64,000 nt of DNA from a bacterium (GTDB lineage: Bacteria; Zhuqueibacterota; Zhuqueibacteria; Residuimicrobiales; Residuimicrobiaceae). The stretch covers positions 17,159-81,158 of the forward strand of contig DAOQAG010000001.1 of assembly GCA_035353815.1 (NCBI GenBank), in the 5' to 3' direction. Below, in pieces: positions 14,627-48,820 of the stretch. The position numbers and the translations under genes are program-made. The stretch's first letter is position 1, and every line of letters begins with the position of its first letter. The notes below the pieces were generated by a model, which was not told the DNA's origin, searched no databases, and saw only the letters and a program-made list of their open reading frames with translations.

Positions 14627-14671
14627 ATCCTGCCGATGCGCGTCAATCCCATAACTGCAGGAATACACCCC

Positions 14672-20525: not shown

Positions 20526-21911
<1,386 letters not shown>

Positions 21912-21923
21912 GCACCCGCCCTT

Positions 21924-24365: not shown

Positions 24366-27300
24366 TCAGCGCATCAACAGCATTTTGCGGGTCAGCGTCC
24401 GGCCGCCCTGGGTCAGGCGATAGAGATAGGTGCCGGTGCTCCAGCCCCGGGCATCGACGCTGATCTGGTGCCGGCCGGCCGGCTGCAACCCCTCTGCCAG
24501 TACCGCCACCTCGCGGCCGAGCAGATCATAGACAGCCAGGCGGACCGGAGCGGCCTGGGGCAGTTCGTAGCTGATCTGCGTCACCGGATTGAAGGGATTG
24601 GGATAGTTCTGCTCAAGGCCGAATCGGGCCGGGAGGGTTACCTCCGCCTGCTCCACCGCCGTGGGATTGGTGGTTTTGAGAACGACCACCAGGTTGTCCA
24701 GATAGATCGATCCGCTGGCGGCTGATCCGGCATCCGGGGCGAGCTGGATACTGTCAATCGTCAATTTGTTGCCGTCCAGGGTGCCGTTGGTCGCCAGCCA
24801 GGAGCCGACCACGCCGGGGTCGCTCATCTTCCATTCCACCAGCCGCCAGCCATACCAGTCGATCTTGACCCACTGGGTCACCTCCGGCAGGGTATTTTTG
24901 GCGGCCACCTCATCGATCGCCAGCCGGAAGAGCGAGCCGCTTCCATCTCCAAAAACCTGGATTTGCAGGGTATAGGTCGTGTCAAAGAAGACGGTGGCCG
25001 GGGTCGTGGCCGGATCGAGATAGACGCGGCAGAGGTGCTCGGCCGCTGCAGTATCCCACTGATAGCGCAGGGCGGCAGAATACTTTTGCGTCCCGAGGGA
25101 GTTGGGCAGCCATACGGTCCGGTCCATTTCAAACAGGGTCTTGGCGGCGATGGTGCCGACCGTCGAGCCGCTATAGCTGGGATCTTTCCAGTTGCTGGCG
25201 CCGAAGAATTTTTCGATGGTTACCTCCTTCAGCGTCCGCTCACCCCGGGTCTTTAAATCCAGATCGATGGGCTGGGGGATGATATTGCCGAAGGTGTCGC
25301 TGAGGGTCGGCTTCAGGAGCAGATGATAATCGGTGTTGATCTCGAGGGCTTTGGCCGGCTGGATCGAAAGCACCGAGCGGTTGCCCATGGGCACGTGCGC
25401 CCACATTGATTTGACGGGCACTCCGCCGATAGATACGAGGATCGTGGAGTCCTTGATGGAGGCGGGCAGGATCCGTTCATTGAACACGAGGTTGATCACC
25501 CCTTCAACCGCCATCGGCTCTTGCGTCCCGGCGGGATAGAGGGCGATCAGTTCCGGACCATTGAGATCGCGGGCATCGGTCGTGAAACGGATTTGAAAGG
25601 ATCCGCCCGCGGCGCCGTCGGCGTCGCCATCGAGCGCCGTGCCGTTGCGATCGCGGGCGGCATCACTCAGAGTCAAAGTATAGGTCGTTGCGAACGCCAG
25701 AGGTGCTGCCGGCTGCAGGGTCAGGGTGCGGTGGTCCGCGCTCCAGGAGATCTTGCCCACCGCGATCGCGGGCGTGATGCTCAGGGCGGCCGCCACCGAC
25801 GTGGAATCCATCCCCTTGCTGAAGACGAGGACCAGGTCATCGCCGACATGCACCGTATCGCTGTTGGCGGGTGTCGAGGCGAAGAGCCGCGGTGCGAAAG
25901 AGGGGACCGGGCCGGCTTCCGCCACATTCGAAGGCAGGGATTCGTTCCAGAACCGGTCCAGGGTCGTGGCATAATAATAGAAGGAGCCGGCGTGATCCTG
26001 CAAGCCATCAAAATGGTCGGTATAGCTGGCGCTGCCGCCGCACCAGAGAATGCGGAGCAGGGGATCTTGGTCCGGTCGCGGGGTATTTTCTTCAATGCGA
26101 TAGAGGGCGATGCGCTGCGGCGTGGTCAGGCCCGCTGGCAGGGTGACGGTCACCTCATAGGTCAACGAGTCGCGCCGGTTGACCGCGACGCCGGGCGATT
26201 CCGGCGTGGCCGTGGACAAAAAGCGCGCAGCACGTATCTTGGTCTTGTTCGAAAAAAAGGATGCTGCAGCCTCGCTGAAAAAGACGTTGTCTTCCCAGGT
26301 GCCATAGCTGAAGAACTGAAAGCCATCCACCCAGGGCACCATGCGGCAATAGTCGACGATCTCGGCATGATGATCCATGATCCGGTTTTCACTGAGGATA
26401 TAGGAGGGCGGGCCGACACTGTAGAGCCGGCCGGCGGCGATACCCTCCTGCAGGAAGGGGCCCCAACTGTTGCTGGGACCGGCGAGCATCTTGTAGAAAT
26501 CGGCGCCGACGGTCCAGTGATAGTGCATCGGCATCAGTTGGTCGACATAGCCGCGGTTGAACCAGAGCGCTGCGTCCTGATAGACCGTGCCGTAGCCCTG
26601 CCAGCCGCCCCAGTTATAGTTGCCGAGGACGGCCGCCGAAAGCCGCACCCAAGGCTTGGCGGCCTGAACGGAATCGTGCAGGGTGTGGACGAATTCGGTA
26701 ACCGACCAGCGCCACCACTCTTCCCAGGAGCCGAATCCGGCGGGCACCCCTGCACTGTAGGGATGCTCGACGTCATAGAGATAGCGCGAAGCCATGTTCG
26801 CCTGGAGATCGGCGAGTTCGGCCTCGCTGATCTGACCATCCAGCTTGGGGCGGGCGGGCTCCTTTTGCAGCGCCGCTGCACCGGATTCCTCGTTCCAGCG
26901 CACATAGTCGAGATGGAGGCCATCGATATCATAGCGGCGCACCAGATCCATCGCCACCGCCACGGTATACGCGCGCACCGCTGCCAGTCCGGGTGAGAGG
27001 GCGCGCGAGGCGTTCATCGGCTGGTCGCTGGAGTTGCGGCAGACCCATTCGGGATGGTCGCCGGACGGCGATCCGGGTGCGGTCGACGAACACTGGAAGC
27101 TGTTGAACCAGGCGTGCAGCTCCAGGCCGCGGTTGTGGGCTTGCTCGATGGCATAGGCCAGGGGGTCGAAGCCCGGATCCATGCTGTCCAGATAGCTGCC
27201 CCACGGTTCAAAGCTGGAGGCATAATAGGCCGTGCCAGCCTGGCGCACCTGCCAGACCACGGCGTTCATGTTGGCTTTCTCGTGATCATCGAGAATCTTG

Positions 27301-27446
27301 CGGATGCGCGCCTTGACTGTCTCGACCGGCTGATGCCCGCCATAGATCTCCCAGGTGATGACCCAGGTAGCGCGAAACTCGCTGGTCTCAGCGGCCCAGA
27401 GTGCACTGCAACAAAAGAGCAGCCCACAGAGAAAATACTTTTTCAT
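24366..27446 (-). CDS. Secreted T9SS cargo protein: N-terminal glycoside-hydrolase-like family 10 domain (GHL10/PF02638), SbsA-type Ig (Big_5) repeats and a T9SS CTD
   Basis: Signal 'MKKYFLCGLLFCCSALWA'; GHL10 'FRATWVITWEIYG ... NMNAVVWQVRQAGTAYYASSFEPWGSYL ... GLELHAWFN'; Big_5-like 'ALSITPAIAVGKISWSADHRTLTLQPAAPLAFATTYTLTLS'; CTD 'QNYPNPFNPVTQISYELPQAAPVRLAVYDLLGREVAVL ... GTYLYRL ... KMLLMR'. Confidence 0.75.
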   Translation of the reverse strand: MKKYFLCGLLFCCSALWAAETSEFRATWVITWEIYGGHQPVETVKARIRKILDDHEKANMNAVVWQVRQAGTAYYASSFEPWGSYLDSMDPGFDPLAYAIEQAHNRGLELHAWFNSFQCSSTAPGSPSGDHPEWVCRNSSDQPMNASRALSPGLAAVRAYTVAVAMDLVRRYDIDGLHLDYVRWNEESGAAALQKEPARPKLDGQISEAELADLQANMASRYLYDVEHPYSAGVPAGFGSWEEWWRWSVTEFVHTLHDSVQAAKPWVRLSAAVLGNYNWGGWQGYGTVYQDAALWFNRGYVDQLMPMHYHWTVGADFYKMLAGPSNSWGPFLQEGIAAGRLYSVGPPSYILSENRIMDHHAEIVDYCRMVPWVDGFQFFSYGTWEDNVFFSEAAASFFSNKTKIRAARFLSTATPESPGVAVNRRDSLTYEVTVTLPAGLTTPQRIALYRIEENTPRPDQDPLLRILWCGGSASYTDHFDGLQDHAGSFYYYATTLDRFWNESLPSNVAEAGPVPSFAPRLFASTPANSDTVHVGDDLVLVFSKGMDSTSVAAALSITPAIAVGKISWSADHRTLTLQPAAPLAFATTYTLTLSDAARDRNGTALDGDADGAAGGSFQIRFTTDARDLNGPELIALYPAGTQEPMAVEGVINLVFNERILPASIKDSTILVSIGGVPVKSMWAHVPMGNRSVLSIQPAKALEINTDYHLLLKPTLSDTFGNIIPQPIDLDLKTRGERTLKEVTIEKFFGASNWKDPSYSGSTVGTIAAKTLFEMDRTVWLPNSLGTQKYSAALRYQWDTAAAEHLCRVYLDPATTPATVFFDTTYTLQIQVFGDGSGSLFRLAIDEVAAKNTLPEVTQWVKIDWYGWRLVEWKMSDPGVVGSWLATNGTLDGNKLTIDSIQLAPDAGSAASGSIYLDNLVVVLKTTNPTAVEQAEVTLPARFGLEQNYPNPFNPVTQISYELPQAAPVRLAVYDLLGREVAVLAEGLQPAGRHQISVDARGWSTGTYLYRLTQGGRTLTRKMLLMR

Positions 27447-27470
27447 TCCCAACCTCAATGATGGTTTGTG

Positions 27471-27525
27471 CAAAAAAATCCGCTGCGGCCGCCCCGGCTG
27501 GGGCTGCAAAATCACAGCGGATTTT
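27471..27525 (-). terminator. Rho-independent terminator after partner gene 1 (compound hairpin with a T-tract)
   Basis: On the minus strand: AAATCCGCTG ... CAGCGGATTT, enclosing an inner GCCCC/GGGGC hairpin, then TTTTTTT. Confidence 0.55.
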
Positions 27526-27536
27526 AACAGCAGCAG

Positions 27537-29729
27537 TTAACGGATAATGACCAGCTTGCGAACGGCGGTGTCGCCTTTCTTGTAGAGCAGGGTATTGGTG
27601 GCCGAATCGTACTGATCCGCCGTGACTTCAAAGTGAACGATGTAGATGCCACTGACCACCACCTGGCGCGAGCTGGTGATGGAATTCCAGCTCTCATCCC
27701 CGCTGCCGTCTTCGTGCGAAATCTGGTTGATCAGATCGCCGCGCTCGGTAAAGATGCGAATGGTGCAGTGTCCGGGGATGTTGAGGAACATGATCTTGTC
27801 GTTCTCGCCGGTGTACTGCAGCACCCGCGATTTGATGTTGTAGGGATTGGGCACGATCCGGATGCCCGGGGTGATCACATTGCCATCGGCATCGACCACG
27901 TCTTCCAGGCTTGAGCCTGCCTGCCGGCGCAGGTAGGCCGGTTCGGTGGTCTGGGTGTAGTAGCGACTGCTCAGCAAGGGTCCTGGCGGATTGCACTCGC
28001 CGCTGCTGTTCTTGCTGCCGTCGTTGAAGGCGGAGACATAATAGTAATAGGAGATGCCGCGGATGGCCGAGACATCGGCAAAGGCATGGATATCCTTGCC
28101 ACCGCTGTAGATCTCCTGAAAGACCGTGTCGGTGCGCCCGACCGCGCGAAAGACCTTGTAGCCCGCAAAGTCGGACTCGCTCTCCGAGGGACTGGCGGAC
28201 CAGGAAACCGTGATGCGGTCGCCGCCCGATTTGACATCGACCAGGGGCGGTGGCTGCGGCGGCTGGGGAATCTTGTACTCGGCGTCCATGGCGCGCTTGG
28301 CGCGGCCGAAGGTCATCAGGATCGAATCCTTGCCGGTGAACACCCACTTGTTCTTGTAGACATCCTTGTCGTTGGTGGTGCTGCCATCGGGCAGGGTGAA
28401 GGGGCCCTTGTCACCCGGATCGAGATAGGCTTTCTTCCAGCGGGCGCCGATCGATTCGCACATCTGCCGGTTGAGGCCGGAGACGCCTTCGGCCTCAACA
28501 AAGGTGACCGACTCACCCGGCTGCAGGTCCCAGGGGCCGTAACAGGCCCAGACATTGGTGCCGCCGCCGTCGTTGTGCACTGTGGAGGGATCGGGATGGG
28601 TGGCCATGTAGGTTTCATCAAAGCGGGTCGTTCCGCCCAGTCCCATGTAGGGATTGCCGCTGAGGACGTTGTAGAGGATGGCCATGGAGGGTTCACCCTC
28701 TTTGGTATAGCTGGTGACACCGGGATAGGAGTCGCCCGCATGCCACCCCAGTTTGAGCAGCTGCGCCGGATCATCGCTATGATCGCCCGCCGACTTGTCG
28801 ACGTGGAGAATGGCCACGCCCGCATGCTGGGGGGAGGCCAGCCGTCCGTTTTTGGAGATGTACGGGCCGCCGATATTATCAAAGGCGTTGACCGGATTCT
28901 GCCCGACGTATTCAAAACCGCAGCGGATCCAGTCGACGATGGGATTGGCTTCGGTGATCTTTTCACCGGCATGCGCCGCATAGTTCTCGCCGCGCTTGGT
29001 AACCCAGCTGAACTTGCCGTAGGTTTGCGCCGATCCCACCGGGCTGGCACCGTCCCGGCACACCGAGTAGCGCACTCCGAAACTGAAGCGGACGCCCGTG
29101 AGGGGGCGTGTCAGCTCGATCTCGGAGTCATAATCGGTATTACCGGTGTTCTCCAGCGTCCAGGTCTGGATGAAATAATTGTTATGGTACTGCTGGGAGA
29201 AGGCATAGATGGTCCGGGTGATGGTAAGGCCGATCAGGGTATTGACCTTGTTGATGACAATACGGTCGGGAATGATCGTGGGATCGATCTCATCGACATC
29301 CGTGGCATACGGAGCGCTGATATCAATGCCGTCCACGTAGACCGTCGGCAGCGCAAATTTGGCGATCTGCTTGAGTTCTACCGGGAAGAGAGCGGTCCCG
29401 ACATTGCCTTCGGAAAAGGTGATCGCGAAATTGTCATAATGTTCATCGCGGGCATTGGTAAAGTTGGTGCAGCCGATCCACTGCCGGCGGATCACCGAAT
29501 TGTCCTGATAGAAATACCCGGCCGGCCAGCGCAGGCCCTCATAATAGGTGTTGTTCCAGGCGCGGTCGGAACCGTAGGCGGTGTAATGGTTTTGCAGCTC
29601 ACCAATACGAATATAGCGCCGGTCCGTAGAGACCACCTGCGAAAACGCCGCGAACCAAATTCCGGTGAGCATCAGGGTGAGGATGATCCCCTTGAGACCG
29701 GGCATTGGGGGGTGATAGGTTCTCTTCAT
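27537..29729 (-). CDS. ~730-aa secreted beta-rich protein with an FN3-like domain and a T9SS-type C-terminal sorting domain; it sits in the 'SusD position' downstream of TonB-dependent transporter 1 (partner 1, uncharacterised family)
   Basis: Signal 'GIILTLMLTGIWFAAFSQ', conserved 'FSQQYHNNYFIQ', FN3-like 'ITVSWSASPSESESDFAGYKVFRAVGRTD', and C-terminus 'VPNPYNIKSRVLQYTGENDKIMFLNIPGHCTIRIFTERGDLI ... SGIYIVHFEVT ... RKLVIIR'. It has no lipobox and no TPR/SusD signature. An RBS precedes the ATG, which lies 17 nt after the transporter's stop codon. Confidence 0.6.
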   Translation of the reverse strand: MKRTYHPPMPGLKGIILTLMLTGIWFAAFSQVVSTDRRYIRIGELQNHYTAYGSDRAWNNTYYEGLRWPAGYFYQDNSVIRRQWIGCTNFTNARDEHYDNFAITFSEGNVGTALFPVELKQIAKFALPTVYVDGIDISAPYATDVDEIDPTIIPDRIVINKVNTLIGLTITRTIYAFSQQYHNNYFIQTWTLENTGNTDYDSEIELTRPLTGVRFSFGVRYSVCRDGASPVGSAQTYGKFSWVTKRGENYAAHAGEKITEANPIVDWIRCGFEYVGQNPVNAFDNIGGPYISKNGRLASPQHAGVAILHVDKSAGDHSDDPAQLLKLGWHAGDSYPGVTSYTKEGEPSMAILYNVLSGNPYMGLGGTTRFDETYMATHPDPSTVHNDGGGTNVWACYGPWDLQPGESVTFVEAEGVSGLNRQMCESIGARWKKAYLDPGDKGPFTLPDGSTTNDKDVYKNKWVFTGKDSILMTFGRAKRAMDAEYKIPQPPQPPPLVDVKSGGDRITVSWSASPSESESDFAGYKVFRAVGRTDTVFQEIYSGGKDIHAFADVSAIRGISYYYYVSAFNDGSKNSSGECNPPGPLLSSRYYTQTTEPAYLRRQAGSSLEDVVDADGNVITPGIRIVPNPYNIKSRVLQYTGENDKIMFLNIPGHCTIRIFTERGDLINQISHEDGSGDESWNSITSSRQVVVSGIYIVHFEVTADQYDSATNTLLYKKGDTAVRKLVIIR

Positions 29730-29746: not shown

Positions 29747-32700
29747 TTAAAAGTTGATCCTGATGCCGAACGTGATATCACGCGGATTCAGCCACCAGAG
29801 GGAATCGATGTTCGGATTATCGATATAGGACTTGTTCTCCTTGCGCACCTTGTTGCGCGCCGTGATGGCCGGGTCGTTATAGGGATTGAGCTCAAGGGCT
29901 TCATATTTGGTCCCTTCGGGGCGCAGATCACCGATCTTGTCGCTCCCCTTTTCATCCCCCTTCTCCCAGTCAAAATTGAGAGATTCGAGATAATCCACAT
30001 AATCATAATTGTCCGAAAAACCAGCAGAATTGAGATACTTGATATCGAGCACGTTGGTAAAATCAAGATAGAGCTGGCTCTCCATTTTCGCGATGCGGAT
30101 CGATTTGGCCAGACGCAGATCGAGATTATACCAGTTCTTCCAGCGCACATTGTCCACTACGCCCGGGATATTGTTGGGATTGTAGGTGACGTAACTGCCG
30201 GCCCGCCAGTCCCCGAGCAGGCTGACGTTGAAAGATTCGAACGGATGCAGGCCGGAGATTTGCGGACCAAATCCTTTGGGCGTGTGCAGATCGAGGTTCA
30301 TGCGGGCATAGGGGCGCGGATGCGGCCGCTCCTGATAGAGATTTTCGCGCAGGTAGGCCCGCTGTTCGTTGGGATTTTCATAATTGGAAACCAGCCCGAA
30401 ATAGCCGCTGGTGGAAACCTCATAGGTATAATTCACAAAACCGGTGATCCACTCGCCGCTCTGTTTGGTCAGGGTCGCCTCAAAGCCGCGGATATCCTGG
30501 TAGCGATTGTTCTCGGCCTTGTAGTAATCGACCGTGCCCTTGAAATTGTGATAATAGACCCAGCCGGCCTGATTGCTCACGTCCTTGTAATGGGCGGCGA
30601 GATTCAACAGCATCGTCCCGAAAAGACTCTGCGAATAGCCCAGTTCGTAGGAGACGGTCTTTTCCATTTCCATATTGGGATCGCCCAGGTAGGTGACCAG
30701 GCCGCTGCGTTCCTGCTGCATCCGGAACCGGTAGGAGGAATAGGCCTCCTGACGGAAATGGCCATAGTTGAAATAGAGCTTGCTGTTGTCGGTGATGGGG
30801 TGCGAAATGCCCAGGCGCGGACTCCAGTAGGTCCGGGATTTCGATTTCGCCTTGGCCACGTGGGTCGAGATCTCTTTGCCATATCCGGCCCCAAGATTGA
30901 CATCGTAGGCATCGAGTACGAGATAATCGCCATTCGGATGGACCTGATCCATGCGTAAGCCAAGGTTGGCGACAAAACCCTGATACTCGATCTTGTCCTG
31001 TGCAAAGGCACCAATGCGGAAGGGGAAGACGTTGTAGGTCATCGCGCGGTTCCAGGTATCCATGGAAGGGCTCACGGTACTGGATTTGATATCATAGTCA
31101 TTATAGACGGCCTGAACACCCGTCTTGAGCTGGTGCCGTGCGGAGATCTGGCTGGTCAGGTCGGCTTTGAAGGTGGTGGTGCTGTTCACGCTTTTGTCGC
31201 GCCCCAGGTTCATCCAGCCGCCCATCCGGTCACCGTTGATGCTGTTGGTGCCGTAGCCCCAGTACCCGTAGGGCATTTCATCGACAAAATAGCCGGGCAG
31301 GATCTGGTTCGTCCTGGTCGTGTCGCGCAGGCTCATCTGGTAGGTATTGGTGCGGTTGTATTGATACTCCAGGGCGACCTCATAGAAGGTGCGGGGTGAA
31401 AGCATGTGCGTCAGCTTCAGACCATGCACCTGCCGGTAAATGGCGGTGGGGCTGTAGTAGGCGGGCACATAGAGAACGGCCAGGCCATCGGTGCTGTTGA
31501 GCAGATCGGCGATCTCACTCTGATCGCGCAGGACATACCCGGTCGGTGTGGTGGTCCAGTTGTACGGGGAGACCGAGTAGACCTCGCCGTAGAGGCCGGT
31601 ATACATCAACTTCATGTTCCTGGCCGGATCGGAGGTCAGCTTGAGCTGGGTATAGTTCTCGTTGTAGCCGTCACGGGAGAGAGGATAGATGAACATCTCC
31701 TGTTCGCGGAAGTGGCTGAGGAAGAAGCGCGTATGGCCGAACTGATTCAGCAGGGGTACCGGACCGCCGAAGCCCAAATCCGCCACATAGTCGGGTTTGG
31801 TGATATCGCCCTGGCGGCGGTGCTGCCATTCATATACCTTTTTCGCCCCCTCGGCTGTAACGTCATTAGTGGGATTGGCATCCTGCAGGGTCTTGTCCGC
31901 CACCGACTGCCAGCCGTCAAAGTTGGGGTACTGGCTGCGCGTGTACTCATCCCAGGCGCCATTATCGGTGCCCGTGTAACAGACCGCCGGATCGAGATAG
32001 ACGCGGTTGAAATAGGACATGGGATCATAGAGGGAGAGGCCGAAATGCTTGGAGGCCGGGGGACTGTAATTAAGATTGGCGGTAAAATTGTAGCGTGCAG
32101 CATCCCCTTCCTTGGTGATCACATTGACCAGACCGGAACGGACGTTGCCATATTCGGCGTTGAACCCGCCTGTCTGGATCTGGATCTCTTTCACCGCGCT
32201 CATCGACAGCGCGGCGTAGGGAATATTGGAGCGCTCATCGTTCAGCGAGAGGCCGTCGAGCAGCATGATGGTCTGATTGGCGGCACCGCCGCGGACCAGA
32301 AGGCCTTCGCTGCCCTTCTGGATGCCCGCCTGGAGGACGAGGGCTTCACGCACGGTCTGCACCGGCATATTCTCGATCGTCGCGGTCTCGAGATTGGTCT
32401 GGCTGCTCGAGACATCGCGCTTTACCACCGGGCGCTGCGCCACAACCACGACATTCTCCCCTTCGATGGCCACACTTTTTAGGGCGCGGTTGACTTCGGT
32501 GGTGCGATCGATCTCGACGCGCACCTGCCGCACCTGGTAGGTGGCATAGCCCAGCATGGAGAAACGCAGATCATAGGTGCCGGGCGAAAGGTTAATGATG
32601 GTGAAGCGTCCATCGATGTTGGTCACGGCGCCATAGCTGGTGCCCTCGATGATGACATTGACGCCAGGCAGAGGCCCTCCGGTCTCCGCATCGGTGACCA

Positions 32701-32788
32701 CACCGGTCAATTTGCCGGTGGTGCCGGCAAACAGCCCGCAGGAAAGACCGAGTACCAGAATCAGAATCCATGTGTACAGTCTTGGCAT
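29747..32788 (-). CDS. SusC/RagA-like TonB-dependent outer-membrane transporter 1 (CarboxypepD_reg N-domain, plug, beta-barrel)
   Basis: 'FAGTTGKLTGVVTDAETGGPLPGVNVIIEGTSYGAVTNIDGRFTI' is the CarboxypepD_reg domain; the TonB box is 'ENVVVVAQRP'; the plug is 'LLVRGGAANQTIMLLDGLSLNDE ... GGFNAEYGNVRSGLVNVITK'; the C-terminus '...RDITFGIRINF' ends in an aromatic residue. Confidence 0.8.
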   Translation of the reverse strand: MPRLYTWILILVLGLSCGLFAGTTGKLTGVVTDAETGGPLPGVNVIIEGTSYGAVTNIDGRFTIINLSPGTYDLRFSMLGYATYQVRQVRVEIDRTTEVNRALKSVAIEGENVVVVAQRPVVKRDVSSSQTNLETATIENMPVQTVREALVLQAGIQKGSEGLLVRGGAANQTIMLLDGLSLNDERSNIPYAALSMSAVKEIQIQTGGFNAEYGNVRSGLVNVITKEGDAARYNFTANLNYSPPASKHFGLSLYDPMSYFNRVYLDPAVCYTGTDNGAWDEYTRSQYPNFDGWQSVADKTLQDANPTNDVTAEGAKKVYEWQHRRQGDITKPDYVADLGFGGPVPLLNQFGHTRFFLSHFREQEMFIYPLSRDGYNENYTQLKLTSDPARNMKLMYTGLYGEVYSVSPYNWTTTPTGYVLRDQSEIADLLNSTDGLAVLYVPAYYSPTAIYRQVHGLKLTHMLSPRTFYEVALEYQYNRTNTYQMSLRDTTRTNQILPGYFVDEMPYGYWGYGTNSINGDRMGGWMNLGRDKSVNSTTTFKADLTSQISARHQLKTGVQAVYNDYDIKSSTVSPSMDTWNRAMTYNVFPFRIGAFAQDKIEYQGFVANLGLRMDQVHPNGDYLVLDAYDVNLGAGYGKEISTHVAKAKSKSRTYWSPRLGISHPITDNSKLYFNYGHFRQEAYSSYRFRMQQERSGLVTYLGDPNMEMEKTVSYELGYSQSLFGTMLLNLAAHYKDVSNQAGWVYYHNFKGTVDYYKAENNRYQDIRGFEATLTKQSGEWITGFVNYTYEVSTSGYFGLVSNYENPNEQRAYLRENLYQERPHPRPYARMNLDLHTPKGFGPQISGLHPFESFNVSLLGDWRAGSYVTYNPNNIPGVVDNVRWKNWYNLDLRLAKSIRIAKMESQLYLDFTNVLDIKYLNSAGFSDNYDYVDYLESLNFDWEKGDEKGSDKIGDLRPEGTKYEALELNPYNDPAITARNKVRKENKSYIDNPNIDSLWWLNPRDITFGIRINF

Positions 32789-35035: not shown

Positions 35036-38000
35036 TTAAAAATTGAACTTTAGACCAATAGTGATATCGCGCGGATTTAGAAACGTCAGGGCTTCGATGT
35101 TGGGGTTATCGATATACGATTTGTCTTCCTTGCGTTTGGCATTGCGGGCGGAGATAGTCGGATCGTTGTTGGGATTGGCTTCAAGAGGATCATAGGCGAT
35201 GTCATCCGGCCGGTAGGTGCCGATGCGGTCATCCCCGCGGTTGTCGCCCTTCTCCCAGGAGAAACACAGGGACTGCATGTAGAACTCATAATCGTAGCTG
35301 TCCGAAAAACCGGCATAATTCAGGAATTTGAAATCGAAAACGTTGCTGGCATCTACATAAAACTGGACTTGCAGACCCCGGGCCGTGATCTGCTTGGAGA
35401 GGCGCATATCCAGATAATAGGTATCCTTCCAGCGCACATTATCCTGAATGCCGGCCAGATCGTTGGGATTGTAGGTATCATAGGCACCGGCACTCCAGCC
35501 GCCGAGGATGTTGAGATTGATATCGGCCAGCACCGGCAAGCCCAGGTCATGCGGAGTATGCAGATCGAGGTTGATCCGGGCGTAGGGCTGCGGCCGCGGC
35601 TTGGATTGGTAGGTGTTCAAGGCCACATAGTCCCGCTGCCGCGCCGGGTCCTGATAATAGCTCAACAGCCCGAAATAGCCGCTGGTCCGGACATCGTAGG
35701 TATAGTTGATGAATCCCGAGATCCAGCGCCCCACCGTTTTGTTCAAGGTCAATTCCAGTCCGCGGATATCGGCATAGTTGTTGTTCACCGCCTTGCTGTA
35801 ATTCACTGTGCTGTTGACGTTGATATAGTTGATCCAGCCGGGTTGGTTGGTGATGTCCTTGTAATAGGCGGCGATGTTCAGCAGGAAAAGGTCAAGGAGG
35901 TTTTGACTGTACCCCAGCTCATACTGGATGGTTTTCTCCGGCTGCAAATTGGGATTGCCCAGATAGGTCACCGAGCCGTTCTGCTCGCGCTGCAGCATGA
36001 AACGATTGGCAGAAGAGGGCTCCTGCGTAAAGTGGCCGTAATTGAAATAGAGCTTGGAGTTCGCGGTGATGGGATGGGATACGCCGAGGCGCGGACTCCA
36101 GAGCAGCGAGGATTTGGCGTCAGACTTGCGGACCGTTTGCAGCAGCTGTTTGCCCAGACCCTTGCCAAGATTCTCGTCATAATCGCCCAGCACCATATAG
36201 GTGCCATTGGGATCGCTGTAATCCATGCGCACGCCGAGATTGGCGATGAAACCCTGGAATTCGAGTTTGTCCTGCAGATAGGCCCCGATACGGAAGGGAA
36301 AAACATGGTAGAACATATTACGGCTCCAGCCGTCCGGCAGGGCGGGACTGTCGGTGAAGGAGCGGATGTCATAGTCGTTGTACACGATCTGCACGCCGGT
36401 CTTGATCTGGTTGCGATGGTTGACCTGGCTGGTCAAGTCCAATTTGAGATTGGTGGTCGCATTAATGCTCTTGTCCCGCCCCAGATTCATCCACGCGCCC
36501 ATGCGGTCGCCATTGATGCTCGGAGCGCTGTAGCCCATATAGCCGTAGGGCAGTTCGTCGACATAGTAGCCGGGGACCGGCTGGTAGATCCGGGCGGTGT
36601 CTCGATCCGAGGTCTTGTAGGTGTTGTTGCGGCTATAGTTATACTGCAACGACACATCATAAAACGTCCGGGTGCTGACCATATGCGTCAGTTGCATGCT
36701 GTAGACCTGGCGGTAGATCGAACTCGGACTGTAGTACCCCGGCATGTAGAGAATGGCCCGTCCCTCTGTGGCGGTGGGGAGATCAGCGATCTCGCTCTGA
36801 TCGCGCAGGACCCGGCCGTTGGGCAGGGTCGTCCAGTTATACGGCGAAACCGAATGCACCTCGCCGTATAAGCCGGAGAGGACCAGTTTCATTTTCGGGG
36901 TGAGGTCGCTGGTGAGTTTGAGCCGGGTATAGTTCTCGCCATAGTTATCGCGCGACAGCGGGAAAATGAACATATCCTGCTCGCGGACATGGGTGGCGAG
37001 GAAGCGGAGATGACCAAGACGCGATCCGATCACCGGCACGGGACCGCCAAAGGTGCCGTCGATGATATAGTCCGGCTTCTCGATATCCCCCTGCCGGCGG
37101 TGCTGCCACTCATAGAGACGCCGTGCACCCTCCGGGGTCAGATCGTTGCCGGGATCATTGTCTTGCAGGGTTTTTTCCGAATAGGAGTTCCATCCGTCAA
37201 AGCTGGGGTACTGGCGGCGGGTAAAATCGTCCCAGGCGCCATTATTCGTGCCCGTATAGCAGACCGCCGGATCCATATAGACCCGGTTGAAGAAGGAGTA
37301 GGGATCATAGATCGAAGGGCCGAAGTGTTTGGCGGCCGGCGGGCTGTAGCGCAGGATCAGCGCACCGTTGAATCGGCCCGGTTCGCTCTCCTTGGTGATG
37401 ACATTGACGAGACCGGCGCGCAGATTGCCATATTCGGCATTGAATCCGCCGGTTTGCACATTGATCTCTTTGACAGCGCTGAAGCCGACGGCGGTATAGG
37501 GGATATTGGAGCGTTCGTCGTTCAGGGAGATGCCGTCCATCATAAAGGCGGTCTGGCCGGCACTGCTGCCGCGCACCAGGATGCCCTCGCGGCCGGACTG
37601 GATCCCCGCCTGCAAGCTGAGCACCTGCCGCACGGTTTCGACAGGCATGCTCTCGATCTTGGCCGCCTCGATGCTCATCTGGCTGTTGGAGATATCGCGC
37701 ACCACCAGCGGGCGATCGGCGACAACCACCACTTCCTCCCCCTGCAGGGTTTCCGCCTTGAGCCGGGCATCGCTCTGGGTGGTCAGATCGATCTCTACGC
37801 GCACAGCGCGCATCGTGACCGTGGCATAGCCCATCAGACTGAATTTGAGGTCATAGGTTCCGGGCGGGATGTTGAGAATGAGAAAACGCCCCTCCAGATT
37901 GGTCACCCCGCCGTACCCGCTTCCGGGAATGGTGACGTTGACCCCCGGCAAGTTTTCCCCACTCTCGGCATCGGTGACCATCCCCGTGATTTTGCCTGTT

Positions 38001-38062
38001 GTGCCAGCGAACAGCATCCCCGCCGCAAGAAACAGCAGAATACAGAGCAATGCGCGATGCAT
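35036..38062 (-). CDS. SusC/RagA-like TonB-dependent outer-membrane transporter 2 (~70% identical to transporter 1)
   Basis: I chose the Met at 38062 ('MHRALLCILLFLAAGMLFAGTTGKITGMVTDAESGENLPGVNV'), which has a GGTGAGGA RBS; the 72-codon upstream extension is Arg/Pro-rich junk. TonB box 'EEVVVVADRP'; C-terminus '...RDITIGLKFNF'. Confidence 0.8.
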   Translation of the reverse strand: MHRALLCILLFLAAGMLFAGTTGKITGMVTDAESGENLPGVNVTIPGSGYGGVTNLEGRFLILNIPPGTYDLKFSLMGYATVTMRAVRVEIDLTTQSDARLKAETLQGEEVVVVADRPLVVRDISNSQMSIEAAKIESMPVETVRQVLSLQAGIQSGREGILVRGSSAGQTAFMMDGISLNDERSNIPYTAVGFSAVKEINVQTGGFNAEYGNLRAGLVNVITKESEPGRFNGALILRYSPPAAKHFGPSIYDPYSFFNRVYMDPAVCYTGTNNGAWDDFTRRQYPSFDGWNSYSEKTLQDNDPGNDLTPEGARRLYEWQHRRQGDIEKPDYIIDGTFGGPVPVIGSRLGHLRFLATHVREQDMFIFPLSRDNYGENYTRLKLTSDLTPKMKLVLSGLYGEVHSVSPYNWTTLPNGRVLRDQSEIADLPTATEGRAILYMPGYYSPSSIYRQVYSMQLTHMVSTRTFYDVSLQYNYSRNNTYKTSDRDTARIYQPVPGYYVDELPYGYMGYSAPSINGDRMGAWMNLGRDKSINATTNLKLDLTSQVNHRNQIKTGVQIVYNDYDIRSFTDSPALPDGWSRNMFYHVFPFRIGAYLQDKLEFQGFIANLGVRMDYSDPNGTYMVLGDYDENLGKGLGKQLLQTVRKSDAKSSLLWSPRLGVSHPITANSKLYFNYGHFTQEPSSANRFMLQREQNGSVTYLGNPNLQPEKTIQYELGYSQNLLDLFLLNIAAYYKDITNQPGWINYINVNSTVNYSKAVNNNYADIRGLELTLNKTVGRWISGFINYTYDVRTSGYFGLLSYYQDPARQRDYVALNTYQSKPRPQPYARINLDLHTPHDLGLPVLADINLNILGGWSAGAYDTYNPNDLAGIQDNVRWKDTYYLDMRLSKQITARGLQVQFYVDASNVFDFKFLNYAGFSDSYDYEFYMQSLCFSWEKGDNRGDDRIGTYRPDDIAYDPLEANPNNDPTISARNAKRKEDKSYIDNPNIEALTFLNPRDITIGLKFNF

Positions 38063-38280
38063 AGAATCCTCACCTAAAAAGAGGGCATGAACGGGCAATG
38101 ACGCCACGACCATAGGGAGTGCAATCCGTGCTGCACCACCCCCTGGTCCATGATTACAGGCGGCGCGAACAATGACCATCGGGGAACAGCCGCGAGGGTG
38201 CCCCCGGCAGGGAGGCGGCGTGCGCCGCCCTCTTGCCGGAGGTATCCTTGCCCCCGGTCCTGCCGGAGTCAATGACACCC

Positions 38281-38333: not shown

Positions 38334-40751
38334 CTACTTCATCAGAGTCATCTTCATGGTTTTGGCAAAGCCGTTGCCCTCGAGGCGGTAGAAATAGATG
38401 CCGCTCGGAGCCACACTTCCATCCAGATTGGTGCCGTTCCAGGATACCCGGTAGCTGCCGGCATTCTGTTCGGCGTCAACCAGATTGGCCACAACCTGAC
38501 CCATCGCATTGAAGACCGTGAGGCGGATATGGCTCTTCATCGGCAGGTCGTAGGAGATGGAGGTCGTCGGGTTGAAGGGGTTCGGATAGTTGGCGTTCAG
38601 CGTGAATTCCGCGGGCAGGCCGCTGGTCGGGATTCTCTCGACCTTGACCCACTGCGAGCCGAACTTGTCGGTCGGGACGACGAAGACCGGGTTGGCATCG
38701 CTGATGGTGACGACACGGTTCATCGCAAAACCGGCTTCGTTGTCCATCGGAGTGGTGCCGGCATTCAGGGTGTCGGTGTAACCGGTGGAGTAGATGCCGT
38801 ATTTGTAGTAGTGGCTCGCGGTCGATCCCGCCGCGAACAGAACCTGGGTTGTCCAGATGCCGTCGCCGGCGGTGGCATCGCCGTTGGTGCCATCATCGTA
38901 CATCGAGATCAGGGTGCCGCCGACATCGGCAACACTCCAGCCCGCCCAGCCGCCGGTGCCGATCGGGGCAAAATCGCCGTTGATAACGACTTTTTCGACG
39001 GTCGGGAACGCCTTCTTGTTGTAGTAATCCTTGGCGCCGTTGGTGTTAACCGAGAAGGTCACGGTGACATCCTGGGAGAGCTTCTTCCCAGCCGGGGTCA
39101 CGTTCGGCTTGAAAGCATCCAGGACCATATCCTCGCCGGTGAAGACGAAGGTATGGTTGTCTCCACCTTCCCAACCACCATCCGCAAAGTTGCCTTCCGG
39201 ACGTCCGCGCCATTTCCAGCCCTGGGTCGTGCCGACGATGTCGGTGATGGCATGGGTGGCGGTATAGAGCGTCGGGACCACCAGGTCAGGCTGGGCGATC
39301 CACTCATCATTGTAGGCCCAACCATTGAAACCGCCGAGGACCAGGATCTGATCGGTGCCGGGGTTGAAGCCCTTGGCCAGCATGTCGGTCACATCCGCCT
39401 GGAAGGTGACGTTCGCGGTCTTGGTCTCGGTGTATTTGTCGATGTTGTTGTAGAAGGCCATATCCAGGACCTTGTCGACGCCCGGGACGGTCAGCTTGCG
39501 GTTGTCAATGCTCTCCCAACGATCGCCGGGCATCAGCACGTACTTGAACTCGAGCTGGGTGCCGACTTGATCACCCGGGAAGGTCTTGGTCAGGGCATAG
39601 ACGCCCGCTTCCGCAGTGGGCAGGCACTCATCCGCATCACCCGCCCAGCCGTTGAAGCTGCCGCGGATGACGACCTTGTCGGTGGCCGGATTGAAATTGC
39701 CATACTGCTGCTGAATGCCCATGTTGATGCGGAAGGTGACGTTGACAGGCCCGCCCGCGGTTTTGACGAACATCTGCGCCGGAACATAATAATCCGCGCC
39801 GAAGCAGGAGACGTAGGCGGTATCGCCGGTGACGGTGAAGGTGACACCGCGCGGTTTTTCGCCAGCCGGCTGGGCCGGATCATTGGTCTGCCACTGGATG
39901 CTGTCGGTCGGAGTCAGGGTGACCGGGTCGATCTCATACCAGGTCATCGATTTGTAGGGGCTGGCAGAGGGAGCTTCATCGTTGTTGCCGCCGTCGATCC
40001 AGAGCTTGCCGGTGGCATAGTTCCAGTTCATCGAAGCCGTAGCCGCGCCGCGGCAGAGGGTATCGGGAACCGCGAAGGGGCTGAACTTGTCGGGACGGGT
40101 GTAGCGCAGCATGAACTTTTTGTCATAGCGGGGTACGTAGACGCTGAGACCGTCATCCGAGACCGCCAGGGTACGGCCATAGCCATCCTGGGAATCGGTG
40201 ACATTGCCGAGATAGGAACCGTCGGCGCCGTAGGTCTCGACCGGGTTGCCCGGCAGGACGTAGCCCAGATAGATATCGCCGTCGACATCCGCCACCGGCG
40301 CGCAATACGAGGTCAGTTTTTGCGGGACAATACGCTGCAACAACTCGCCGGTTTTGTAGTCAAAGCGGTAGATATAGGGATAGGCCGTCCAGAGGACATT
40401 ACCATCATGGTCCATGCCCAGTCCGCGATGGGAATTGTAGAGGGTGTCGGTCTGGCCGAAGCCGGTGACCAGGTTCGCGCCGCTCCAGGGCGTGGGGGTG
40501 CCATCCGGATAGAAGCAGAAGATCTGCCGGGTAGCACCGGTCGTGCCATTGGCCTTGGTGATCGTGCTGGTGGCGCCATACATCTGCAGCCAGACCTTGC
40601 CTTCACGGTCAACGATAATGCCGTGCGAACCCATGCCACCGACCGGTTTGAAGTCATCGGCCGGGAAATTCCGGACGAACACCCAGCCAGCCGAGGCCGC
40701 CATAGCGGAGAGCAGAACCAGCGCAATGGCCAATACTAACATTCTTTTCAT
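38334..40751 (-). CDS. Secreted T9SS cargo protein with an N-terminal beta-propeller-like region and three starch-/carbohydrate-binding-module-like repeats
   Basis: Signal 'MKRMLVLAIALVLLSAMAASA'. Three repeats resemble CBM20/25-type modules ('VNVTFRINMG...GSFNGWAGD', 'ANVTFQADVT...GGFNGWAYNDEW', 'VTVTFSVNTN...GDFAPIGTGGWAGW'). CTD 'NANYPNPFNPTTSISYDLPMKSHIRLTVFNAMGQVVANL ... GIYFYRL ... KMTLMK'. Confidence 0.6.
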   Translation of the reverse strand: MKRMLVLAIALVLLSAMAASAGWVFVRNFPADDFKPVGGMGSHGIIVDREGKVWLQMYGATSTITKANGTTGATRQIFCFYPDGTPTPWSGANLVTGFGQTDTLYNSHRGLGMDHDGNVLWTAYPYIYRFDYKTGELLQRIVPQKLTSYCAPVADVDGDIYLGYVLPGNPVETYGADGSYLGNVTDSQDGYGRTLAVSDDGLSVYVPRYDKKFMLRYTRPDKFSPFAVPDTLCRGAATASMNWNYATGKLWIDGGNNDEAPSASPYKSMTWYEIDPVTLTPTDSIQWQTNDPAQPAGEKPRGVTFTVTGDTAYVSCFGADYYVPAQMFVKTAGGPVNVTFRINMGIQQQYGNFNPATDKVVIRGSFNGWAGDADECLPTAEAGVYALTKTFPGDQVGTQLEFKYVLMPGDRWESIDNRKLTVPGVDKVLDMAFYNNIDKYTETKTANVTFQADVTDMLAKGFNPGTDQILVLGGFNGWAYNDEWIAQPDLVVPTLYTATHAITDIVGTTQGWKWRGRPEGNFADGGWEGGDNHTFVFTGEDMVLDAFKPNVTPAGKKLSQDVTVTFSVNTNGAKDYYNKKAFPTVEKVVINGDFAPIGTGGWAGWSVADVGGTLISMYDDGTNGDATAGDGIWTTQVLFAAGSTASHYYKYGIYSTGYTDTLNAGTTPMDNEAGFAMNRVVTISDANPVFVVPTDKFGSQWVKVERIPTSGLPAEFTLNANYPNPFNPTTSISYDLPMKSHIRLTVFNAMGQVVANLVDAEQNAGSYRVSWNGTNLDGSVAPSGIYFYRLEGNGFAKTMKMTLMK

Positions 40752-40918: not shown

Positions 40919-42142
40919 TCACTGCAAGCCGTAATAGGGGGCACTCTCTTTTTGCGTATTGATGCGAATGATGGTCTGCGCATACTTGATCGTTTCGCCT
41001 TCAAGCACCTGTTCGCGCGTCATGTAGAGATTCGAGCCCGGACCCCAGGCGAAGAGCAGCGTCTTGGGGAAAAACTGCCCGGGATAGAGGGGCTCGTACG
41101 AGCCGGTCGGGCTGACCAAAAAGATGGCTTCGGGGGCATCGGTCCCGACATACATATAGCCATCCGCGGAAAAGGTGATACAGTAGACGCCGTAGCCGCC
41201 GCCCACCTTGGCCGAGAAATCAAAGTACTCTTCCACCGCACCCAGGTCCTGTCCATTGAAGGGGAAGCGCCAGACCTTGTCCGCGCCATCCTTCTTGCCG
41301 GCGACATAGAGATAGCCGTTGTAGACCCGCACCGATTTGAGGTTGGCGGTGAAGGGGAACTTGGTGATGCTCTTGTCCGGTTTGATACGATAGATGTCGG
41401 TATTGTTGCCCACACCCCAAAGGTTGTGGTTAACATCAAAATCCAGGTCATAGATCGTGCCCAGGCCGGAGGAGACGAAAGTGGCCGGCTTGGTCGCGGC
41501 CGCGGCGATCGAGAAGATGCCCTTGAGATTACGCGCGCAATAGAGCACGTTGCCGGGGCCCATCTTCATGGCCGACCAGAAGGTCTCACCGCCTTTGGGG
41601 GCATAATCGACGTATTTCTCAGCGCCCGGGGTGACGATCTTGACGCCGGCACCGGCATTGCTGACCACCAGCGAGGCATAGACATTGCCGGTCGCGTCCG
41701 TCGCAATACCGTAGGGAATCTCGGCGGGGGTGAAAGTCAGGAGATTCACCTGTGCCGCTTCGAGCTTGTAGGGCCACTTGTTGCTAAAGATCTCGGCATT
41801 TTTCACGGCGATGCGGATGGCGATCGAGTCGGAGACATAGATCGGTGCACGCACCTTCAACTGCGTCGCCGAGGCCTCCACCACCGTTCCCTTTTCAGCG
41901 TTGAAATAGACAATATTGTCCTCTTTCACCGTCGAAAAGTTGGAGCCGGTGAAGGTAATCAGGGTCACCCCCGAAAGCGCCACACTGGCCGGCTCCACCG
42001 CCGAGATGACCGCCGGGCTGCTCGTCTTGGCGTTGGGATCGTACAAGCTGGACGGATAGTCGTTACTGTCGCATCCCGCCAGCACAAAGATCAAGGCGGC
42101 CACCAGGAAGATCGCCTGTAAAATGATAAATCTCTTTCCCAT
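40919..42142 (-). CDS. Lipoprotein with an N-terminal IPT/TIG-like Ig domain and a beta-propeller-like (NHL/SMP-30-type) region
   Basis: Lipobox 'LVAALIFVLAGCDSN', IPT-like 'PVISAVEPASVALSGVTLITFTGSNF', and repeated 'G.(V/L)Y(V/C)' blades. Confidence 0.5.
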   Translation of the reverse strand: MGKRFIILQAIFLVAALIFVLAGCDSNDYPSSLYDPNAKTSSPAVISAVEPASVALSGVTLITFTGSNFSTVKEDNIVYFNAEKGTVVEASATQLKVRAPIYVSDSIAIRIAVKNAEIFSNKWPYKLEAAQVNLLTFTPAEIPYGIATDATGNVYASLVVSNAGAGVKIVTPGAEKYVDYAPKGGETFWSAMKMGPGNVLYCARNLKGIFSIAAAATKPATFVSSGLGTIYDLDFDVNHNLWGVGNNTDIYRIKPDKSITKFPFTANLKSVRVYNGYLYVAGKKDGADKVWRFPFNGQDLGAVEEYFDFSAKVGGGYGVYCITFSADGYMYVGTDAPEAIFLVSPTGSYEPLYPGQFFPKTLLFAWGPGSNLYMTREQVLEGETIKYAQTIIRINTQKESAPYYGLQ

Positions 42143-42187
42143 ATGAAACGTCCTCATCTAATGATCAACGGATCAACCTTCAGTGAA

Positions 42188-43195
42188 TTAGATGCCGAGC
42201 CTGCAGGTGAAGCGGTGGACATTATTGAACACATCCATCGGCGAATAGGAGTAATCGATGCTCACGCCGAAATTGGTGTTCACGCCGAAGCCGGCCGTGA
42301 ACCCGTAATCATCCTGCCTGGTGATGTAGCCGGCGCGCAGGGCGAGCAGATCCATGAGCTTGTACTCGGCGCCAAGATTGAGGTATTCGGGAAAATCGCG
42401 CGGATGGACCGCATCGATCGAGAGCAGCAGGTTGTGATTTTTGCCGATCGCCGGAACCAGATCGAGAGCATCCATCGAAAATCCCACTTTGAAGGTCAAG
42501 GGCAGCTGAAAACCCTCACGCTCGTACTTGACTTCCTGAGAAAAATTGCGCACGCACATGCCGAATGCCAGACTCTTGAAGCCGGTTTTGTAGAGTGTGC
42601 CGAAATCAAAGGCATAGACGCTCTTGAGGTAATCCTTGTTATCCGTAACATAAGGCGCGGTATTGTTCAGGGGGATGGTGACATGACCGAGATCCTGATG
42701 CACATACTTGACCTGGCCGCCCACCGAGAAGCGGTCGGTCAGATCGATCGCATAGCCGAGTCCGATGGTCCACGCGCTCGGGCCGAATTTGCCGGTATCC
42801 AGAAAACCCTGCTCGTTATCCGCGACGACCGTGCCATCGAGATCGCCATAATCAATGGCCATGGCGCTGACGCCAAAGGTGCCGTACTGACCGCGGAAGG
42901 GCCGGCCAGCGAGTGAGAGGGCCAGATACTGGATATCTGCGATCCAGGTCATCTGCGTGAATGAGGCATCAAGATTCTTGATACTGCCGGCCATACCGGC
43001 GGGATTGTAAAAGAGCGCGGAACCGGAACCTTCCACCGTGGTGAAGGCCTCCCCCATGCCGGTGGCACGGGCATCGGTGCCGACACTGAGAAACTGGCAT
43101 CCGGTCTGGGCGAGCTTTTTCTGAGCCTGGCCATCCGTATAAAAGGCGCCTAGCACCAGAAGAACGGATACGATACAAACGATCATACGCTTCAT
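42188..43195 (-). CDS. Outer-membrane beta-barrel of the FadL/PorV superfamily (candidate PorV-like T9SS shuttle)
   Basis: Signal peptide, then 'GTDARATGMGEAFTTVEGSGSALFYNPAGMA', which matches the N-terminal motif shared by FadL and PorV/LptO barrels. The protein is amphipathic beta-strand-rich and ends 'FTCRLGI'. Confidence 0.5.
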   Translation of the reverse strand: MKRMIVCIVSVLLVLGAFYTDGQAQKKLAQTGCQFLSVGTDARATGMGEAFTTVEGSGSALFYNPAGMAGSIKNLDASFTQMTWIADIQYLALSLAGRPFRGQYGTFGVSAMAIDYGDLDGTVVADNEQGFLDTGKFGPSAWTIGLGYAIDLTDRFSVGGQVKYVHQDLGHVTIPLNNTAPYVTDNKDYLKSVYAFDFGTLYKTGFKSLAFGMCVRNFSQEVKYEREGFQLPLTFKVGFSMDALDLVPAIGKNHNLLLSIDAVHPRDFPEYLNLGAEYKLMDLLALRAGYITRQDDYGFTAGFGVNTNFGVSIDYSYSPMDVFNNVHRFTCRLGI

Positions 43196-48499: not shown

Positions 48500-48820
48500 A
48501 ACGGATTTCTCCTCTTGTTGAAAAGGTAGAGTGAATTGGGGGTATACGTGATGGCTGCCGCGTTGCAGGGCGTCCAGGAAGAGTAAAAAAAGCTGCATGC
48601 CGCTCCTTGCCACGCCCCCACAACGTGGAACATCTTGAAATATGGCGGACACCCATGGAGAGGCGTGATGAGCACACCCTGAAAACCTCCGCTGGCAGTG
48701 GAAGGCAGTTGGTCACTCATTGCTGAGAGCAGTAGTTCGGTGCGAGGCTGATGACCCTGAAATATCCTAGGATCAATATTCATAGTCTACCACTTTTCCC
48801 CCACAAAGTCAATACTTTTA

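Follow-up and report, generated by a model that had tools for sequence, protein, structure and literature searches.

What role is played by the proteins encoded directly behind three SusC-like TonB-dependent receptors (TBDRs) in a 64,000-nucleotide stretch (the window) of contig DAOQAG010000001.1 from a Residuimicrobiaceae bacterium? The gene under study, P1, and its two relatives in the window, P2 and P3 (together, the partners), each begin 17–30 nt past the stop codon of their own TBDR, and all three receptor–partner pairs lie in a compact minus-strand cluster at about 24.3 to 48.7 kb. On balance, we favour the answer that a partner is a non-lipoprotein accessory subunit that sits at the cell surface and belongs to the SusC-like TonB-dependent transporter (TBDT) encoded upstream of it, that it is exported through the T9SS (type IX secretion system), and that it is a functional analogue of SusD but not a homologue.

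The pairing seen in the window recurred across the family. We fetched 79 loci and counted as paired a partner with a homologous receptor ending <400 nt upstream on the same strand. A TBDR lay directly upstream of 69 of the 70 partners that had enough upstream DNA (the sole exception, locus L061, is described below), and a partner followed 73 of 73 such receptors, with paired loci covering at least six phylum-level lineages. The paralogue types also matched: T3 receptors were paired with P3 partners (6/6), and T1/2 receptors with P1/2 partners (67/67). Within the window the identities run in parallel, at 62.5, 40.8 and 42.2% among the TBDRs and 58.3, 38.9 and 40.1% among the partners. Thus, receptor and partner have been duplicated, and have diverged, together. 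One receptor does not in every case go with one partner, as one locus (L086, 3544–7948) has a single receptor followed by two tandem P3-type partners. All three window receptors (1013–1102 residues) contain CarbopepD_reg_2 and Plug domains by Pfam, and no SusD-family Pfam match was recorded in nine Pfam-annotated partner loci.

P1, P2 and P3 could be aligned end to end using MAFFT, at identities far above chance (Table 1). They are paralogues with one layout: a Sec signal peptide, a beta-rich domain of ~455 residues (the N-domain), a Pro-rich linker, an FN3 module and a C-terminal beta-sandwich. A sequence-only reading of this DNA had proposed the order signal peptide, large beta domain, FN3 and T9SS-type C-terminal domain (CTD), and this agrees with what we found by sequence comparison, AlphaFold2, Foldseek and hhalign. 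The three Pro-rich linkers it listed (PQPPQPPPL, PQPPLPPSF and PVPPPAPSF) are present exactly as described. So are its conserved blocks, YYEGL(R/M)WPA.., F(S/T/A)QQYH(D/N)NYFI, SPQHAG..ILHVDKS and GPWDL..GES.T.VEAEG..GL, all of which were found in the MAFFT alignment, exact in P1 and P2 and diverged but recognisable in P3 (QQDGLQWPALFEYQDC, APHYAGFAVLHADKS, GPYTLAPGDSVHIVLAEGIAGL). The likely true start of P1 is M9, at position 29705, which gives a protein of 722 residues, the same as database protein P0001, to which it is 100% identical. Signal peptides of Sec type I are present in all three partners, with predicted cleavage at AFS/Q, ATG/Q and LHPVQA/DD, and no lipobox Cys was found in the signal peptide of P1, P2 or P3. 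In P1/P2-type partners a Gln follows the predicted cleavage site family-wide (QVV.. and QLL.. at 29640–29729 and 34928–35005 of the window, minus strand). This resembles the 'Q-rule' of Bacteroidetes, which is not valid for the Fibrobacteres–Chlorobi–Bacteroidetes (FCB) group as a whole (PMC5837995).

AlphaFold2, run on P1 with a 71-sequence alignment, produced a confident model both for the N-domain (residues 31–485; predicted local distance difference test, pLDDT, 92.4; predicted template modelling score, pTM, 0.92) and for the mature full-length protein (pLDDT 89.8, pTM 0.85). The model confirmed that the N-domain is beta-rich. Its core superposes on the galactose-mutarotase-like supersandwich, with 200–270 residues aligned at 5–12% identity, and the remaining ~190 residues form loops and a long C-terminal helical hairpin. 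The structure-based search for remote homologues that had been suggested for this domain therefore gave a match at the level of fold only. There was no clear match to a SusD-like, lectin or hydrolase family, and the description of the domain as a possible binding or hydrolytic module stands. The FN3 module was also supported at the level of fold, as Foldseek matched it to FN3 tandems (gp130, NCAM and titin) with a probability of 1.00 and the full-length model places strands at mature residues 466–539, but not by Pfam, where the partners gave no fn3 match; phmmer against the PDB reached FN3 chains only at E about 0.4.

Two candidates for the identity of the partner were rejected on these data. 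A SusD homologue is ruled out by the beta-supersandwich fold of the model, by signal peptides that lack a lipobox and by the lack of a Pfam SusD match at E ≤ 0.01. A glycoside hydrolase with an overlooked catalytic domain is ruled out as the whole 700-residue chain was confidently modelled and contains neither a TIM nor an (alpha/alpha)6 domain. The (alpha/alpha)6 catalytic domain that is attached to the supersandwich in glycosidases and phosphorylases is absent from the P1 model, and none of the partners matched Pfam Aldose_epim. Between paralogues, the N-domain is the most divergent part (34–55% identity) and the CTD the least (59–78%). The high divergence of the N-domain fits the expectation for a specificity module.

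The CTD is a genuine but divergent T9SS domain. A profile of the family CTD (the last ~109 residues) matched a profile of 10 canonical T9SS type A CTDs end to end (hhalign, 93.6%, E = 2e-7), starting at the PNP motif, including two insertions and reaching the basic/hydrophobic strand at the terminus, and Foldseek showed this region of the full-length AlphaFold2 model to be a beta-sandwich. Together with sub-threshold matches to TIGR04183 and to the PorZ tail, this supports the earlier assignment of a T9SS-type CTD and hence the layout as a whole. The conserved pattern is IRxVPNPY..TERGDL..HxDGSGDEAWNS..RQVVVSGxY..RKFVIIR. Three proteins encoded in the window match PF18962/TIGR04183 or FlgD_ig at their C-termini, and the window also encodes a barrel of the PorV/PorQ family; the core genes sprA/sov and porKLMN were not seen within the 64-kb window, the sole DNA covered.

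The CTD is also unusually well conserved. Mean pairwise identity among 71 family members is 66% for the CTD, 56% for FN3 and 48.5% for the N-domain, and the paralogues within the window show the same order (78, 61 and 59% for the CTD vs 55, 34 and 34% for the N-domain). The CTD was conserved above the N-domain in 68 of 84 comparisons. In contrast, for the GHL10 cargo encoded in the same loci, the canonical CTD fell behind the catalytic domain in conservation in 7 of 8 comparisons (median 44% vs 64.5%). A sorting signal that is cleaved and discarded should not be so conserved, which suggests that the partner CTD is kept and binds something conserved, rather than being removed by PorU with attachment of the protein to glycolipid.

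What might the CTD bind? Neighbouring genes were clustered without bias around the partner loci, using 47 full-size loci for the core genes and all 79 loci, within ±6 kb, for the others, and the pair proved to be part of a conserved module of four to six genes. A PorV/PorQ-family outer-membrane barrel of ~335 residues was present in 39 of the 47 full-size loci. In the reverse check, on long contigs sampled regardless of neighbours, 8 of 8 barrel homologues adjoined a receptor–partner pair, and two loci (L082 and L085) have two barrels with two pairs. The barrel in the window falls below the equivalog cut-offs for both PorQ (88.5 vs 220 bits) and PorV (83.1 vs 250 bits), and is a candidate receptor or anchor for the partner CTD. 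The other members of the module are a TIG-domain lipoprotein of ~410 residues (35/47 full-size loci), relatives of the 805-residue CTD protein (28/79 loci) and the GHL10 catalytic region (24/79). In an assembly labelled Caldithrix abyssi the whole series is present, running receptor, partner, barrel, lipoprotein, CTD protein and GHL10.

The reading of the partner as a SusD analogue draws on its adjacency to and co-duplication with the receptor, its carbohydrate-associated fold, its lack of a catalytic domain and its neighbourhood, which resembles a polysaccharide utilization locus (PUL). The partner would cross the inner membrane by Sec, using its type I signal peptide, and then be exported by the T9SS. 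Its supersandwich N-domain, raised on the FN3 spacer, would be displayed beside or over the transporter, where it would capture oligosaccharides that T9SS-secreted enzymes of the same locus (in the window, GHL10) set free, and hand them over to the transporter barrel, with the three paralogous pairs serving different ligands. It is possible, and we propose it tentatively, that the sorting domain stays uncleaved and bound to the PorV/PorQ-family barrel of the locus, as PorZ is to PorQ, and so tethers the partner beside the transporter. Retention of this kind would explain both the conserved CTD and the dedicated barrel.

Several points weigh against this reading. The receptors score 70–88 bits against the SusC/RagA model TIGR04056, far below its cut-off of 368, with the match limited to the N-terminal ~130–280 model positions, and are thus 'SusC-like' by architecture only. 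P1 and P2 did not match the type A CTD models PF18962 (E ≤ 0.01) or TIGR04183 (E ≤ 0.1), and P3 scored 17.8 bits against TIGR04183, below its cut-off of 23. The window has one PorV/PorQ-like barrel for three partners, and this barrel could equally serve further cargoes that the locus sends through the T9SS. The TIG/propeller lipoprotein might act as another binding protein at the surface, or might itself be the lid; in the latter case, the partner could be an extra surface glycan-binding protein, a variant that stays within the general claim of the explanation we favour. Throughout, we infer the surface location of the partner, its binding of a ligand, its contact with the transporter, the retention of its CTD and its substrate. 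Finally, conserved acidic and His residues had been proposed as worth looking for in the N-domain, and this domain does have 69 near-invariant residues. Numerous Asp, Arg, His, Glu and Tyr positions in it are invariant, and these suit an active or metal site as well as they suit a binding site or interface.

These invariant charged and aromatic residues would also fit a partner that is itself a T9SS-secreted enzyme, such as a lyase, a novel hydrolase or an enzyme of the epimerase/mutarotase kind, which would process the substrate where it enters the transporter and have the supersandwich as its catalytic domain. We consider this unlikely. The absence of a recognisable catalytic signature, remarked on in the sequence-only reading, held up, and no Pfam or NCBIfam family matched at threshold. 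We regard it as improbable that the partner goes the usual way of T9SS cargo, being cleaved and having no stable link to the barrel, whether released into the medium as a hemophore-type free scavenger that comes back to the transporter or attached covalently to surface glycolipid. Free substrate-capture proteins that feed TBDTs exist (for example, HasA/HasR), and a single barrel for three partners would also suit such a cargo. Moreover, cleavage is the normal fate of type A CTDs (PMC10947112), to which the partner CTD is homologous. However, the partner CTD is the most conserved domain of the protein, the neck that precedes it is conserved and confidently modelled and is not a flexible linker, the domains seem to be held in set positions relative to one another, judging by the full-length pTM (0.85), and the barrel subfamily is specifically tied to receptor–partner pairs. 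It is very improbable that the module, instead of importing nutrients, unites the TBDR-like barrel, the partner and the PorV/PorQ-like barrel in a surface-structure, adhesion or secretion-related apparatus with a structural or adhesive partner, as might be read from the NCBI family name 'fibronectin', from an FN3 domain with a CTD, as in many adhesins, and from receptors that score below the threshold of every substrate-specific TBDT model, because the receptors have Plug and the SusC-type CarbopepD_reg N-terminal extension, a secreted glycosidase-like enzyme (GHL10) recurs at these loci and several diverged pairs per genome fit substrate diversification.

If a partner of the kind we favour captures glycans, which ones? 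GHL10 is the only enzyme-like gene of the window cluster (PF02638, 128 bits), and it is probably the depolymerase of the locus. Its closest solved relative is C. difficile Cwp19 (5oq2; E = 1.7e-25), a peptidoglycan lytic transglycosylase. It is also 26% identical, over 371 residues, to E. coli DigH, a full-length GHL10 (PF02638) member (453 bits). DigH is a divisome-localised glycosyl hydrolase that has been studied in the context of denuded peptidoglycan glycans (PMC12288456). This kinship makes peptidoglycan-type glycans the substrate one would guess at, and that glycans of this type from necromass feed at least one of the three pairs is only a guess. GHL10 is diverse, which limits the inference to peptidoglycan, and no peptidoglycan-recycling or sugar-catabolic genes were found by Pfam in the upstream part of the window, the flank that was covered.

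How widespread are the partners? The claim that the family is uncharacterised held up. A Pfam scan of P1, P2 and P3 returned zero families at E ≤ 0.01, and in NCBIfam the final ~70 residues resembled the PorZ tail, and those of P3 also TIGR04183, only faintly and below threshold. The PDB contained no sequence relatives, either by phmmer with the protein or with a ten-sequence profile of the N-domain. Full-text literature searches found no description of the family, which is unmentioned in the Caldithrix abyssi and Melioribacter roseus genome papers, and homologues carry no database name other than 'fibronectin' or 'hypothetical protein'. Although large, the family is discrete. At 90% clustering there were 722 matches for P1 and 1520 for P3, the N-domain profile found at least 583 clusters at 50% identity (E ≤ 1e-3), and at least 537 GTDB species-representative genomes carry a member. 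The record titles of carriers name KSB1, Calditrichota/Caldithrix, Melioribacteraceae/Ignavibacteriota, Fidelibacterota/Neomarinimicrobiota and Kryptoniota, together with metagenome-assembled genomes that have less reliable labels.

The N-domain profile search also returned long-form relatives of 1000–1600 residues. These join the N-domain to other modules, which are right-handed beta-helix/PMP repeats, propellers of the BNR/sortilin type or leucine-rich repeats. Seven of the eight examined matched Por_Secre_tail, five of these at or above the gathering cut-off. The long form of 1589 residues at L061, the only one seen in its genomic context, has no TBDR adjoining. The fusions with Por_Secre_tail speak for the T9SS as the export route of the partners and indicate that the supersandwich is a reusable module of T9SS-exported surface proteins, of which the ~700-residue form with the special CTD is the transporter-tied version.

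The positions of these features and of the neighbouring genes are given in Table 1. A sigma-54-dependent response regulator and a histidine kinase lie beside the cluster, and such regulators recur by these loci (GAF-sigma54 activators at 1–960 of L082 and L085). A scan of the window for the sigma-54 −24/−12 consensus gave 31 matches vs 31.5 expected, with none in the relevant intergenic regions. As this is the level of chance, no regulatory link can be claimed. The GHL10 enzyme and the two-component system are separated by a GT9 gene, and it is conceivable, as speculation, that this gene is tied to surface glycolipid or the lipopolysaccharide core, and hence to attachment of T9SS cargo. Elsewhere in the window, 17778–19706 (minus strand) and 14636–17374 (plus strand) encode, respectively, a fusion of multihaem cytochrome c with a membrane domain resembling cytochrome b561 and an adjoining protein of 912 residues. 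The latter has Golvesin_C, ASH/HYDIN Ig domains and a FlgD_ig C-terminal domain, and is probably another T9SS cargo.

Table 1. Partners, receptors and neighbouring genes of the cluster, with the domains of P1 and the long-form relatives of the family (window positions unless a locus is named; a slash in a sequence marks signal peptide cleavage).
Feature	Position	Strand	Remarks
Partner P1, gene under study	27537..29729	-	730-aa open reading frame
P1 signal peptide, Sec type I	29640..29729	-	..WFAAFS/QVV, mature N-terminus Gln; by sequence inspection
P1 N-domain	28275..29639	-	aa 31-485; galactose-mutarotase-like beta-supersandwich and C-terminal helical hairpin
P1 Pro-rich linker and FN3-like beta-sandwich	28005..28274	-	linker KIPQPPQPPPL; about aa 486-575
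P1 conserved neck, FN3 to CTD	27864..28004	-	..PAYLRRQAG..; holds the insertion of the next line
P1-specific 12-aa insertion	27864-27899	-	VVDADGNVITPG; residues ~611-622, directly before the CTD; also in close P1 orthologues, absent from P2 and P3
P1 C-terminal domain	27540..27863	-	aa 623-730; divergent T9SS type A CTD, two insertions
Partner P2	32852..35005	-	717 aa; 58% identical to P1 (BLASTP; 59% in MAFFT alignment)
Partner P3	43236..45317	-	693 aa; 39-40% identical to P1 and P2 (to P1, 39% by BLASTP and 42% in MAFFT alignment); separate orthologue group
TBDR1, SusC-like TonB-dependent receptor	29747..32788	-	CarbopepD_reg_2 and Plug; stop codon 17 nt upstream of P1
TBDR2, SusC-like TonB-dependent receptor	35036..38278	-	paired with P2
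TBDR3, SusC-like TonB-dependent receptor	45344..48652	-	paired with P3
PorV/PorQ-family outer-membrane barrel, locus-specific	42188..43195	-	335 aa; NF033709, 203.9 bits vs cut-off 90
TIG-domain lipoprotein	40919..42157	-	412 aa; LAGC lipobox; probable beta-propeller
T9SS type A cargo	38334..40751	-	805 aa; three repeated ..(S/G)FNGW.. modules; faint CBM20 match, choice-of-anchor X match
T9SS-secreted enzyme GHL10	24366..27515	-	PF02638, Big_5 and canonical CTD
GT9 heptosyltransferase-like gene	23292-24347	-
Sigma-54-dependent response regulator and histidine kinase	20526-23267	-
Long-form relatives	L061 5917-10683		also P0241, P0243, P0250, P0275, P0293, P0300, P0376

What would follow if the favoured explanation were true? 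Thousands of 'fibronectin' and 'hypothetical' annotations would get a name, PUL-like loci outside Bacteroidota would have a marker, the roles of the T9SS and of PorV/PorQ-type barrels would be widened, and GHL10, hence peptidoglycan-type glycans, would provide a concrete hypothesis on the material that is scavenged. A wider proposal, which we hold to be doubtful, is that several FCB phyla outside Bacteroidia have an independent four-component uptake machine, made up of a SusC-like TBDT, a T9SS-exported supersandwich lid, a dedicated PorV/PorQ-like barrel that would keep the lid at the surface by gripping its uncleaved CTD and a TIG/propeller lipoprotein. The T9SS would then be an assembly route for transporter subunits, and the machine may be specialised for glycans with amino sugars, for instance peptidoglycan strands after cleavage by the co-encoded GHL10.

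How does the partner compare with known systems? In fold, its N-domain resembles the N-terminal beta-supersandwich of GH15 glucoamylase, of GH65/GH94 phosphorylases and of GH116, and also aldose 1-epimerases. However, the supersandwich in these glycoside hydrolase (GH) families is an accessory to an (alpha/alpha)6 catalytic domain, whereas the partner lacks such a catalytic domain, and the low identity of its N-domain (5–12%) and its ~190 extra residues, including the long C-terminal helical hairpin, set it apart from both the GH and the epimerase domains.

In combining a surface protein that has a CTD-like beta-sandwich with a PorV/PorQ/PorP-type barrel, the locus resembles PorZ–PorQ, PorU–PorV and type B cargo with PorP-like proteins. 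PorU and PorZ keep their CTDs, with the PorQ barrel holding PorZ at the cell surface (PMC10947112); according to the title of a paper cited there, cargo of type B is anchored at the surface in association with PorP-like proteins. Unlike in the PorV/PorQ systems, the barrel here is a locus-specific paralogue and its cargo would be a transporter partner, not a component of the T9SS. Moreover, unlike for PorZ and PorU, retention of the CTD is deduced solely from its conservation.

Non-SusD lids next to TBDTs have been described in Bacteroides, namely BtuG, XusB/DUF4374, DUF4876 and DUF4625 (Price et al., 10.1101/2023.03.17.533168), and that survey asked why lids go with Bacteroidota. As for the partners, these are non-SusD accessory genes adjoining TBDTs, many in little-known families (domains of unknown function, DUFs), and conserved proximity is the main evidence. 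The Bacteroides lids are, however, lipoproteins of non-SusC TBDTs that have small substrates and are almost confined to Bacteroidota, whereas the partner family appears to be exported by Sec and the T9SS, is paired with long SusC-like receptors and is found in sister phyla.

The closest parallel in gene organisation is with SusD and RagB, as the partner lies directly downstream of a TBDT of ~1000 residues with a carboxypeptidase-regulatory-like extension and Plug. As for SusC/SusD in the PULs of Bacteroidota, the partner has been duplicated, and has diverged, jointly with its transporter, in a locus that also encodes secreted glycan-active enzymes and other surface proteins. SusCD 'pedal-bin' import is thought to be essentially a speciality of Bacteroidota, and to depend on surface lipoproteins. 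In contrast to the alpha-helical, TPR-like SusD, the partner is a beta-supersandwich that has neither sequence nor fold kinship with it, is not a lipoprotein and has a T9SS sorting domain in place of the lipid anchor. Its receptors, unlike SusC/RagA, score far below the threshold of the SusC/RagA model, and it occurs mainly in the sister phyla KSB1, Calditrichota, Ignavibacteriota, Fidelibacterota/Marinimicrobia and Kryptoniota. The family suggests that these phyla, which are little studied and abound in sediments, in aquifers and hot springs and in the deep sea, solve substrate capture with another fold and another export route. The principle of a TBDT with a surface partner is known; the protein family is new, and its export and anchoring would follow a different logic.

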